This document shows positions 24,473 through 25,853 of a DNA stretch of 39,643 nucleotides, piece by piece (positions within the stretch are counted from its first letter, which is position 1; each line of letters begins with the position of its first letter). Origin of the DNA: a phage; the sequence record PZ386960.1; one strand, written 5' to 3'. Made by a program: the position numbers and the translations under genes. The notes under the pieces were generated by a model, which was given only the letters and a program-made list of their open reading frames with translations, was not told where the DNA came from and did no database searches.

Positions 24473-24495
24473 TAATACGACTCACTATTGGGAGA
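24473..24495 (+). promoter_or_regulatory. Phage RNAP promoter (phi10-like)
   Basis: TAATACGACTCACTATT-GGGAGAG followed by the hairpin GGGAGAGACTACACGTTCTCCC. Confidence 0.9.
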
Positions 24496-24600: not shown

Positions 24601-25635
24601 ATGGCTAACATTAATGGTGGACAACAGATGGGTAAAGACCAAGGTAAAGGCATGAGCGCTGGTGATAAGCTGGCTCTATTCCTGAAGGTCTTCGGTGGTG
24701 AAGTTCTGACTGCATTTACCCGTACCTCAGTAACTATGAACAAACACCTTGTGCGTTCTATTCAGTCCGGTAAGTCCGCGCAGTTCCCTGTGCTGGGTCG
24801 TACCAAAGCTGCTTACCTGCAACCGGGTGAGAACCTTGATGACAAACGTAAAGACATGAAGCACACTGAGAAGACCATTAACATTGATGGTTTGCTGACT
24901 GCTGACGTTCTGATTTACGACATCGAAGACGCTATGAACCACTATGATGTGCGTTCTGAGTACACTGCACAGTTGGGCGAGTCTCTGGCTCTGGCTGCTG
25001 ATGGCGCGGTTCTGGCTGAAATGGCTAAGCTGTGTAACCTCCCGGCTAAAAACAACGAGAACATCGCTGGCTTGGGTACTGCAAGTGTTCTGGAAGTTGG
25101 TGAAGCTGCTACGCTTCAAGGCGACCAAGTGAAGCTGGGTCAGGCAATCATCGCACAGTTGACTCTGGCTCGTGCACGTCTGACTAAGAACTATGTTCCG
25201 TCTGCTGACCGTACCTTCTACACGACTCCTGATAACTACTCAGCGATTCTGGCTGCTCTGATGCCTAACGCTGCAAACTATCAGGCACTGATTGACCCGG
25301 CAACTGGTTCTATCCGCAACGTAATGGGCTTCGAAGTAATTGAGGTTCCACATCTGACTGCTGGTGGCGCTGGCGATGACCGTGAAGACGAAACTTCTAA
25401 CCAGAAACACGCATTCCCTGCGACTGCTTCCGGTGACACTAAGGTTGCTCTGGATACCGTTGTCGGCCTGTTCTGCCACCGCTCTGCCGTTGGTACTGTG
25501 AAGCTGAAAGACATGGCGCTGGAACGTGCTCGTCGTGCTAACTATCAGGCTGACCAGATTATCGCTAAGTACGCGATGGGTCACGGTGGTCTGCGCCCTG
25601 AAGCTGTAGGTGCGCTGGTTTTCAAAAAGGCTTAA
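24601..25635 (+). CDS. gp10A: Major capsid protein 10A
   Basis: 344 aa; GGQQMG, KLALFLKVFGGEVLTAF, IAKYAMGHGGLRPEA match T7 gp10A. Confidence 0.97.
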   Translation: MANINGGQQMGKDQGKGMSAGDKLALFLKVFGGEVLTAFTRTSVTMNKHLVRSIQSGKSAQFPVLGRTKAAYLQPGENLDDKRKDMKHTEKTINIDGLLTADVLIYDIEDAMNHYDVRSEYTAQLGESLALAADGAVLAEMAKLCNLPAKNNENIAGLGTASVLEVGEAATLQGDQVKLGQAIIAQLTLARARLTKNYVPSADRTFYTTPDNYSAILAALMPNAANYQALIDPATGSIRNVMGFEVIEVPHLTAGGAGDDREDETSNQKHAFPATASGDTKVALDTVVGLFCHRSAVGTVKLKDMALERARRANYQADQIIAKYAMGHGGLRPEAVGALVFKKA

Positions 25636-25769
25636 CTTCTCGCAAACTCGTAGGGGACACTGAGTCCCTTACTGAAGTTGAGCAAGAGCTAACGCCACAA
25701 CAGAAAGCTGCCCGTACCCGTGCGGCAAACAAGGCTCGAAAGGAAGCTGAGTTAGCTGCTACTGAATGA
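25617..25769 (+). other. gp10B: Programmed -1 frameshift site and C-terminal extension producing minor capsid protein 10B
   Basis: G GTT TTC at 25617-25623, in phase with 10A; the -1 frame stays open for 45 codons to TGA at 25767-25769. Confidence 0.7.
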
Positions 25770-25779
25770 TAACTATATG

Positions 25780-25823
25780 AAACCCCCTTGGGTGCCTTCG
25801 CGGGTGCTTGAGGGGTTTTTTTC
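25780..25823 (+). terminator. Tphi-like terminator
   Basis: AAACCCCCTTGGGTGCCTTCGCGGGTGCTTGAGGGG followed by T7; same architecture and position as T7 Tphi. Confidence 0.85.
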
Positions 25824-25845
25824 TTAATGACTCACTAATGGGAGG
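25823..25845 (+). promoter_or_regulatory. Phage promoter-like element upstream of gene 11 (one base short in the upstream half)
   Basis: CTTAATGACTCACTAAT-GGGAGGA. Confidence 0.55.
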
Positions 25846-25853
25846 AAACCTAT

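Follow-up and report, generated by a model that had tools for sequence, protein, structure and literature searches.

The -1 frameshift between T7 genes 10A and 10B was reportedly described by Condron, Atkins and Gesteland in 1991. The T7 facts used here for comparison were taken from a 2016 review and from Slootweg 2006. In the phage, about 10% of the translations are cited to shift, in comparison to <1% for the T7 heptamer without its native 3' context, and therefore a stimulator located 3' is needed (PMC1635266). The gene 10 shift of T7 is reportedly influenced by a CCCC within the terminator Tphi, >200 nt 3' (PMC5009743).

Similarly, the orthologous capsid genes of T3 and phiYeO3-12 contain a -1 shift in their last codons, which results in an extended minor capsid protein, and a stable hairpin is located about 5 nt downstream of the slip (PMC5009743). 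There, the slip occurs on Lys codons (C CCA AAG) and the T3-type extension, 86-93 codons in length, encodes a Big_2 Ig-like domain (Pfam 1.9e-15). A further -1 shift in an enterobacterial host is that of E. coli dnaX on A AAA AAG, whose cassette includes an SD-like element about 10 nt 5' and a stem-loop 5-6 nt 3' of the heptamer.

For the Kluyvera phage Kvp1, which belongs to the genus Berlinvirus, 10B has been observed on protein level. Here, a virion band of 43.6 kDa was described and MS peptides covered residues 327-372 including the junction, with reported m/z of 2244.123, 2372.219 and 2692.310 (Lingohr et al., 2008; PMC2579914). Our recalculated masses of 2244.124 (LVGDTESLTEVEQELTPQQK), 2372.219 and 2692.308, the latter being YAMGHGGLRPEACGALVFQQGLTSR with carbamidomethyl-Cys and oxidised Met, agree with the reported ones. 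A junction ...VF|QQG... fits these masses and places the shift after Phe, as expected for a slip on UUC. The authors described no typical slippery site and proposed a 'pseudoknot' 144 bp downstream, beside the annotated terminator, and not a hairpin close to the slip (PMC2579914).

The DNA studied here (the window, i.e., the whole stretch of 39,643 nucleotides of record PZ386960.1) is that of a T7-like phage of the genus Berlinvirus, and all features described below are located on the + strand. Gene 10A (24601-25635 in the ORF list, with the stop TAA at 25633-25635) encodes the major capsid protein of 344 aa and 36.7 kDa. This protein matches the Pfam family Gp10A-like PF21703 (2.2e-106) and, over residues 1-342, the T7 capsid chains 2xvr/3j7w of the PDB ('major capsid protein 10A'; E = 4.3e-169). 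The gene order 9-10-11, together with a phage promoter and a terminator, matches that of annotated relatives. Judged by this homology, the capsid gene is the orthologue of T7 gp10.

At the end of 10A, the slippery heptamer G GUU UUC (GGTTTTC, 25617-25623) is present in phase, the zero-frame codons being GTT (25618-25620) and TTC (25621-25623). It is common to T7, Kvp1, BP12A, FE44, JSS1 and others, and in T7 it covers the same Val and Phe codons and likewise ends 9 nt ahead of the 10A stop. In the window, the heptamer is followed by the 9 nt AAA AAG GCT and then by the stop. The first-pass annotation had correctly recognized this heptamer in phase near the 10A stop, but its distance of 12 nt is the one counted from the start of TTC. 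Three-frame translations revealed that the -1 frame is shut by TGA at 25599-25601 and open thereafter up to TGA at 25767-25769; a script delimited 25602-25632 as the sole stretch in which 10A can be joined to the extension by a -1 shift. The open frame up to 25767 had been claimed before, with 45 codons. However, 48 sense codons follow the slip (QKGLTSRKLVGDTESLTEVEQELTPQQKAARTRAANKARKEAELAATE; 25623-25769 including the TGA), and 45 is the net gain in residues. Accordingly, the anticipated minor capsid protein about 45 residues longer than 10A is retained as a prediction, with 389 aa (41.6 kDa) for 10B vs 344 aa for 10A. It would consist of 10A residues 1-341 followed by a C-terminal tail with a variable linker and the conserved basic motif KAARTRAANKARKEAELAA.

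With respect to the pattern X XXY YYZ, G GUU UUC is non-canonical, since re-pairing in the P-site involves a mismatch at the middle position. Neither the perfect heptamer A AAA AAG nor CCCAAAG was found at the 10A end of the window; instead, C AAA AAG (25623-25629) overlaps the first heptamer. As read from the sequence, this second site is in phase, contains the A_AAG tetramer and is a possible candidate for a minor or alternative shift site; T7 reads AAA GUG at this place.

Taken alone, neither the heptamer nor the open frame exceeds chance. GGTTTTC occurs twice in the window (4.8 expected), as does CAAAAAG, and both counts are under the shuffled expectation, so motif counts are uninformative and heptamer enrichment was rejected as evidence. 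The length of the open frame was likewise rejected, since a -1 frame open for at least 45 codons has p ~0.09 on base composition and 12 of the 38 long-ORF ends within the window carry longer -1 extensions. It is homology and conservation that make the site non-random.

At its C-terminus, the predicted product carries the motif LTPxQKAARTRAANKARKEAELAA of the T7 10B tail, and BLASTP against the T7 10B tail yielded E = 1e-11 with 73% identity over 26 aa. In both phages the extension ends with ...LTPxQxAARTRAANKARKEAELAA just 5' of Tphi, whereas its length after the slip differs (48 codons in the window vs 56 in T7) and the linker sequences are unrelated. From GLTSRK on, the amino acids are identical to those of the Kvp1 extension; the Kvp1 10A protein has 347 aa vs 344 in the window. 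For the tail core LTPQQKAARTRAANKA (25689-25736), pairwise codon differences among 12 nucleotide haplotypes from several genera comprise 426 synonymous vs 68 non-synonymous changes in the -1 frame, in comparison to 25 vs 437 and 3 vs 428 in the other two frames. Within this core, 14/16 third positions are variable, but only 5/16 first and 3/16 second positions. Thus, purifying selection acts on the tail solely in the -1 frame. A Pfam search with the 48-aa tail yielded no match, and in the PDB search the capsid structures align only to about residue 342 and leave the tail uncovered. One relative (L014) has a nonsense codon inside the extension, and laboratory T7 can, by textbook accounts, do without 10B, which together suggests that the tail is not essential.

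A Tphi-like intrinsic terminator was detected by a terminator scan at 25784-25822, with a 14-bp stem (25784-25815) and a run of seven T. The stem starts 14 nt past the TGA of 10B, confirming that the extension ends just before the Tphi hairpin as originally noted, and a terminator is annotated at the equivalent place in the records of Kvp1, BA14, FE44 and ETEP21B. As in T7, a C run is found in its 5' arm, which begins within this run (25783-25787); the CCCCC lies 159 nt downstream of the shift site, in comparison to 179 nt for T7 (own count). The orthologous gp10, the same heptamer on the same codons, the tail homology and the selection in the -1 frame all uphold the 10A/10B arrangement of T7 that the first-pass annotation had proposed. 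Based on these likenesses, the site in the window is the expected Berlinvirus copy of the textbook T7-type 10A/10B frameshift, already known and ordinary. Points beyond that annotation are the overlapping second slip site, the prior documentation and a conserved hairpin that starts 6 nt past the heptamer.

The comparison of related loci extends this picture. An in-phase A/U slip tetramer is present in the last 10A codons of all 40 distinct loci with a recognisable -1 extension (40/40), in comparison to 4/23 loci without an extension, 19/23 of which lack the tetramer (Fisher p = 1.4e-12, uncorrected for phylogeny). Within the Leu-Val-Phe codons, GTT TTC is found where an extension exists and mostly GTC or GTG TTC where it does not. 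In other lineages with this tail, the site is G GUA AAG or G CCA AAG. The sequences compared further indicate that extension modules are swapped among lineages, namely the basic tail, the Ig-like domain and a domain without Pfam match. The window locus is not of the T3 type, as it contains neither C CCA AAG nor a Big_2 domain and, according to its heptamer, would slip on Phe and encode a short basic tail.

Downstream of the heptamer, a two-part hairpin of 54 nt (25630-25683) is predicted, starting 6 nt 3' of it. The lower stem of 10 bp (25630-25639/25674-25683) contains the 10A UAA and is followed by a 5' internal loop of 10 nt (25640-25649), an upper stem of 9 bp (25650-25658/25664-25672) with the loop ACUGA (25659-25663), and a bulged U at 25673. 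Its MFE of -25.3 kcal/mol represents 77% of the ensemble (z = -4.27), with 0/200 shuffles equally stable, and the structure is supported by the RNAalifold consensus. In the alignment, 99.5% of the cells are paired and four compensatory pairs are present, which was matched by 0/500 shuffles. The sequence is also constrained at third codon positions, with a diversity of 0.028 in the hairpin vs 0.19 in 10A, where no 54-nt segment reaches such a low value. Only 2/18 third positions vary in the hairpin, in comparison to 50% in 10A and 17/28 in the remaining extension. Variants within Berlinvirus are confined to the spacer or loops, or preserve the pairs, and a gapped-pattern scan of IMG/VR added two new sequences with changes in spacer or loop only. 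Kvp1 has an identical 54-nt hairpin sequence. Helsettvirus shows the same architecture despite a diverged encoded peptide, with compensatory double changes at four pairs; as these come from one diverged lineage, they represent few independent events.

A covariance model of the hairpin, searched against 68 sources, matched solely in Berlinvirus and Helsettvirus and detected neither T7, whose local hairpin differs in sequence, nor the other tail-bearing lineages. Homology of the hairpin across further genera is therefore unsupported. Rfam contained no family for it and returned only a sub-threshold chance match to SpF22 sRNA. Independent, non-homologous stable hairpins begin 3-8 nt past the slip site of T7 (z = -2.4), L031 (-4.1), L030 (-2.7), T3-like phages (-2.7) and L025 (-4.0); the KP32-like lineage carries G GUU UUC without a stable local hairpin (z = -0.4). 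From its position, conservation and covariation, the hairpin at 25630-25683 is probably a local frameshift stimulator. Pairing of the GGGG in its upper stem with the CCCC of the terminator was also considered; it would be feasible at -15 kcal/mol, but was rejected since the GGGG is absent in the tail-keeping lineages L030, L031, L064 and L079.

Taken together, we favor, with a probability of roughly 85%, a -1 slip on G GUU UUC that makes the minor capsid protein 10B and is probably stimulated by the local hairpin. A minority of the ribosomes translating gene 10 would slip back one nucleotide at 25617-25623, with tRNA-Phe re-pairing from UUC to UUU and tRNA-Val re-pairing imperfectly from GUU to GGU. 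Here, the hairpin would probably pause the ribosome over the slippery codons, with a possible further contribution of the distal terminator region like that reported for T7. Having slipped, the ribosomes would miss the stop of 10A at 25633 and translate another 48 codons up to the TGA at 25767, and the resulting 10B would join 10A in the capsid as a minor component. For the window phage, we infer both how efficient the shift is and what the tail does; in contrast to dnaX, far less than 50% shifting is expected.

Two alternatives accept the recoding and differ in its details. A shift mainly or substantially on C AAA AAG, in which tRNA-Lys would move from AAG to AAA, like at lysyl sites of the dnaX or T3 type, and yield ...VFKKG... 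instead of ...VFQKG..., appears unlikely. In its favor, no tetramer shifts more readily in E. coli than A_AAG, which is far ahead of U_UUC (PMC4066793). The second site is in phase within the stretch that permits joining, the BP12A record annotates AAAAAGG as its slip site, lineages with the same tail use the lysine codons mentioned above, and BA14, which has UUA in place of UUC, is the only one among the relatives examined with a perfect A AAA AAG. In addition, an SD-like AGGUG (25608-25612) is located exactly 10 nt upstream of C AAA AAG, which equals the dnaX spacing. However, this element is unconserved (UGUGGUG in Kvp1), and so is the A-run, which reads AAC AAG in Kvp1 and 285P and AAA ACG, ACA GCG or AAC GAG in others of the genus, while G GUU UUC is conserved. 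Kvp1 makes 10B without C AAA AAG and with its junction after Phe. The P-site re-pairing from AAA to CAA would be imperfect, and the hairpin is spaced for U_UUC, leaving 0 nt after AAG, in comparison to the usual 5-9 nt. By its heptamer, its stem-loop spacing and the unconserved SD-like element, the locus is thus not a dnaX-type cassette. The two shifts would differ in the calculated MH+ of the junction peptide by 0.036 Da (2101.101 for YAMGHGGLRPEAVGALVFQK after a UUC shift vs 2101.137 for ...VFKK... after an AAG shift). About equally improbable is that the slip on G GUU UUC is real but stimulated by the distal terminator, the hairpin being kept for RNase III-type processing or mRNA stability. 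T7 RNase III sites are likewise two-stem hairpins with an internal loop, and the predicted hairpin resembles such a processing signal in its size and in its asymmetric internal loop. This would also fit to the CCCCC retained in the terminator arm of the window, to the KP32-like lineage with its slip on G GUU UUC and no stable local hairpin, and to T7, where the experimentally implicated stimulator is distal and not a local hairpin (PMC5009743). On the contrary, the hairpin begins 6 nt past the slip site, the independent hairpins listed above occupy a similar place, cleavage within the 10B coding region would abolish 10B, and the GGGG:CCCC pairing is unconserved among lineages with the same tail.

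The remaining alternatives dispense with ribosomal frameshifting altogether. That the -1 frame is a relic or chance ORF and 10B is unmade or irrelevant would be in line with the chance levels of heptamer and ORF length, with the many GenBank relatives that annotate 10A alone, with the stop in L014 and with the dispensability of T7 10B. The strong synonymous/non-synonymous asymmetry in the -1 frame among 12 haplotypes of several genera, the full association of slip sites with extensions and the protein evidence from Kvp1, which has the same extension amino acids, speak against it; in addition, the region is 99.7% identical to that of phage ErnstBeyeler without a disabling change. We therefore regard the absence of functional recoding as very improbable. 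Even less credible is access to the extension through a separately initiated small ORF or through slippage of the RNA polymerase on the runs T4 or A5. Such short homopolymers do occur, and separate ORFs are annotated in 285P ('10b') and ETEP21B ('minor capsid protein'). Nevertheless, the runs comprise only 4 and 5 nt, well under the lengths known for productive transcriptional slippage, and the junction peptide of Kvp1 represents a fusion to 10A. The -1 ORF of the window contains no ATG, GTG, TTG, CTG or ATH codon, in agreement with the ORF list, and an independently initiated small ORF was rejected for this reason.

A more far-reaching reading, which we put forward tentatively and consider somewhat doubtful, combines a so far undescribed local stimulator (the 54-nt hairpin of Berlinvirus and Helsettvirus) with a tandem U_UUC/A_AAG site and an SD-like element at dnaX spacing in the sub-lineage of the window phage. 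If the tandem site were true, two 10B isoforms (Gln342 or Lys342) would arise, and the share of 10B might exceed that of Kvp1 or T7. If the hairpin were the stimulator, selection would preserve structure over peptide, which would provide a tractable contrast to the unexplained long-range terminator effect of T7.

The current understanding of the 10A/10B system is unchanged by the site in the window. For annotation, a joined 10B CDS, as already present in the GenBank records of Kvp1 and FE44, is warranted in the window phage, whose closest relatives JSS1 and ErnstBeyeler are among the many Berlinvirus records with only 10A or a spurious separate small ORF. The comparative set represents a natural experiment on recoding, in which slip sites are found where the -1 extension exists. 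Finally, a classic frameshift with a still unexplained 3' signal in T7 gains, in the conserved local hairpin, a stimulator candidate that can be tested.

Gene 10A (24601-25635, + strand) encodes 344 amino acids and ends with TAA at 25633, and the slippery heptamer GGTTTTC lies at 25617-25623 on the same strand, where GTT and TTC are codons of the zero frame. Three-frame translations revealed that a TGA at 25599-25601 closes the -1 frame of this strand, which then stays open until TGA at 25767-25769. Therefore, any shift must fall in 25602-25632. The first-pass annotation had placed the heptamer in phase 12 nt before the 10A stop and had the -1 frame open for 45 codons to TGA at 25767. Here, the phase and the stop position hold, but the gap is 9 nt and 48 codons are read after a slip on UUC, 45 being the net gain in residues. 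The predicted 10B comprises 389 aa (41.6 kDa) in comparison to 344 aa (36.7 kDa) computed for 10A, in agreement with the proposed difference of about 45 residues. As also proposed, the -1 frame ends just before the Tphi-like terminator, which a terminator scan placed as a hairpin at 25784-25815 (+ strand) followed by seven T. Thus, the observation itself is confirmed.

Taken alone, however, the heptamer and the open frame are not beyond chance. GGTTTTC occurs twice in 39.6 kb versus 4.8 times expected, an open -1 frame of 45 codons has p ~ 0.09, and longer -1 extensions are found at 12 of the 38 long-ORF ends within the window. The case for a putative frameshift rests on comparative evidence, for which 71 related IMG/VR loci and eleven GenBank regions with annotation were used.

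By megablast, the gene 10 region matched 677 phage records, the best being Berlinvirus phages (Autographiviridae, Studiervirinae) of Salmonella and Escherichia, with identities of 98.1% for JSS1, 93% for BP12A and 91.6% for Kvp1. The 291 nt surrounding the frameshift site are 99.7% identical to phage ErnstBeyeler, and the first 25 kb of the window share 91–94% identity with ErnstBeyeler, PhiV-1 and others. Judged by the gene 10 and first-25-kb identities, the window is a new isolate-level genome within a well-known group.

For the Kluyvera phage Kvp1, a 43.6 kDa band was seen in virions, peptides of m/z 2244.123, 2372.219 and 2692.310 covered residues 327-372, and a -1 shift "at TTTTCA" was concluded (Lingohr et al., PMC2579914). 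Masses calculated from the Kvp1 sequence are 2244.124 for LVGDTESLTEVEQELTPQQK, 2372.219 once an N-terminal K is added to that peptide, and 2692.308 for YAMGHGGLRPEACGALVFQQGLTSR carrying oxidised Met and carbamidomethyl-Cys. The latter spans the Kvp1 10A/10B junction and agrees with a slip after Phe, the alternative junctions that were computed being ~14 Da off. From GLTSRK onwards, the encoded extension of the window is that of Kvp1. Furthermore, a joined 10B CDS is present in the records of Kvp1 and FE44, and slippage notes in those of BP12A and BA14. Therefore, the 10B frameshift is already known for the genus Berlinvirus.

The window extension, QKGLTSRKLVGDTESLTEVEQELTPQQKAARTRAANKARKEAELAATE, aligns to the T7 10B tail (E = 1e-11), and its core LTPxQKAARTRAANKA is encoded in the -1 frame in T7, Berlinvirus, Helsettvirus and several further lineages. 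Among 12 distinct nucleotide versions of this core, variation is seen at 14 of the 16 third codon positions, compared to 5/16 first and 3/16 second positions. Pairwise codon differences in the -1 frame are 426 synonymous versus 68 non-synonymous, whereas the other two frames give 25 versus 437 and 3 versus 428. No ATG, GTG, TTG, CTG or ATH codon was found across the -1 ORF of the window, so that the extension is reachable only from 10A. Together with the Kvp1 peptides, the T7 tail alignment and the codon selection support the interpretation as a T7-type 10A/10B frameshift.

Studiervirinae differ in the module that follows gene 10A in the -1 frame (L012, L025, L028, L067, L074; L022, L023, L043 and other loci), this being a short basic tail, an Ig-like Big_2 domain (1e-15 to 1e-20 in Pfam), or a third module of 85–100 codons (…TRRTNTLYFKG…) without a Pfam match. 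The T3 extension has been described as Ig-like, that of T7 not (PMC5009743). In locus L014 (IMGVR_UViG_2700988866, 2226-2297), a GAG-to-TAG change corresponding to window position 25680 cuts the extension to 16 codons and also breaks one lower-stem pair of the hairpin described below. This looks like a natural 10B-tail knockout, which would fit a dispensable tail. In the Yersinia phage PYPS50 type (L021, ~2375-2540), an extra small ORF of ~53 aa (MWILTMGLRVTNAV...), equipped with an AAGGAGG ribosome-binding site of its own, separates the Tphi terminator from the 10B stop. The window does not carry this ORF; the insert is also present in BLAST matches H56-H60, which explains two-piece matches with ~170 extra bases.

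An in-phase A- or U-rich slip tetramer is present in the last 10A codons of all 40 distinct loci whose -1 extension is recognisable (the short tail in 22, a domain of 84–100 codons in 18) and is missing in 19 of 23 distinct loci without one (Fisher p = 1.4e-12, loci counted regardless of shared ancestry). Leu-Val-Phe is spelled CTG GTT TTC in loci with the extension and mostly GTC or GTG TTC in those without. Lineages with the same tail use G GUU UUC, A GUU UUC, G GUA AAG or G CCA AAG, as would be expected under selection for the product. In Escherichia phage ETEP21B (L006, ~1524-1547), GGTTTTTCAAACGG has one T more and two A fewer than the window, and a C stands where the window has its last A; as a result, the heptamer reads G GUU UUU and the C-terminus of 10A is VFQTA. 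In the records of ETEP21B and 285P (L008, 1512-1676), the extension is annotated as a separate small CDS and not as the product of a frameshift, probably in error.

Directly after the heptamer comes AAA AAG, so that a second candidate site in phase, C AAA AAG (25623-25629), overlaps G GUU UUC. In E. coli, A_AAG ranks first among tetramers for shifting, far above U_UUC (PMC4066793), the annotators of BP12A picked the A-rich site in their GenBank record, and BA14 carries a perfect A AAA AAG. An SD-like AGGUG (25608-25612) is located exactly 10 nt 5' of C AAA AAG and 4 nt 5' of G GUU UUC. A gap of 10 nt is the dnaX spacing. This element is not conserved, Kvp1-type sequences having UGUGGUG. Within Berlinvirus, the A-run varies (AAC AAG, AAA ACG, ACA GCG, AAC GAG) while G GUU UUC is kept, and Kvp1 lacks the A-run, yet makes 10B. 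On these grounds, UUC is regarded as the main slip site, with AAG possibly serving as a minor one; the predicted 10B products of both slips differ in one residue, Gln or Lys at position 342.

For T7 gene 10, G_GU is listed as a non-canonical X_XX in a 2016 review, which also notes an unexplained long-range effect of the terminator CCCC, >200 nt 3' of the shift site (PMC5009743). In a foreign 3' context, the T7 heptamer alone dropped from ~10% shifting to under 1%; therefore, a 3' stimulator is needed (PMC1635266). In the window, the terminator arm retains CCCCC at a distance of 159 nt from the shift site. The terminator, the local hairpin described below, or both may stimulate the shift here. 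A simple GGGG:CCCC pairing is not kept throughout the lineages that bear the tail. Two T7-RNA-polymerase-type promoter-like 23-mers were observed, TAATACGACTCACTATTGGGAGA (24473-24495) upstream of gene 10 and the diverged TTAATGACTCACTAATGGGAGGA (25824-25846) directly after the terminator, where the Kvp1 record has a "phi11" promoter.

A single structure dominates the predicted folding of the 65 nt after the heptamer (77% of the ensemble, -25.3 kcal/mol; z = -4.27, 0/200 shuffles as stable). The predicted hairpin (+ strand) begins 6 nt 3' of the heptamer, with a 10-bp lower stem (25630-25639 with 25674-25683) containing the 10A stop codon, a 10-nt internal loop on the 5' side between the stems, and a 9-bp upper stem (25650-25658 with 25664-25672) closed by the loop ACUGA. 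In 11 Berlinvirus sequences, third-codon-position diversity is 0.028 in the hairpin (2/18 sites variable) versus 0.19 in 10A (50% vary) and 0.22 in the rest of the extension (17/28), and no 54-nt window of 10A was as low. Changes within Berlinvirus fall in the spacer or loops or preserve pairs (A-U to G-U, G-C to G-U, G-U to G-C), the two pair-breaking exceptions being a terminal pair in BA14 and the G-to-T of L014 that also makes a stop codon. The architecture recurs in Helsettvirus (fPS-19, L020), where both partners of four pairs have changed and the peptide encoded there is a different one (LMSRNLGADSTLAPDVE versus LTSRKLVGDTESLTEVEQE). Across 10 sequences, paired cells make up 99.5%, with 0/500 shuffles reaching the observed values and slid controls at <=53% paired, for a structure derived from the same sequences and with compensatory changes all from one lineage. 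A covariance model matches Berlinvirus and Helsettvirus only, and an Rfam search returned no family. Other lineages have their own stable hairpins 3–8 nt after their slip sites (z: T7 -2.4, L031 -4.1, L030 -2.7, T3-like -2.7, L025 -4.0), except the KP32-like lineage, where no stable hairpin follows the slip site (z = -0.4).

The window site is an orthologous copy of a recoding event known from textbooks and demonstrated before in Berlinvirus. The modestly new points would be the candidate tandem slip site and the predicted, conserved local hairpin.
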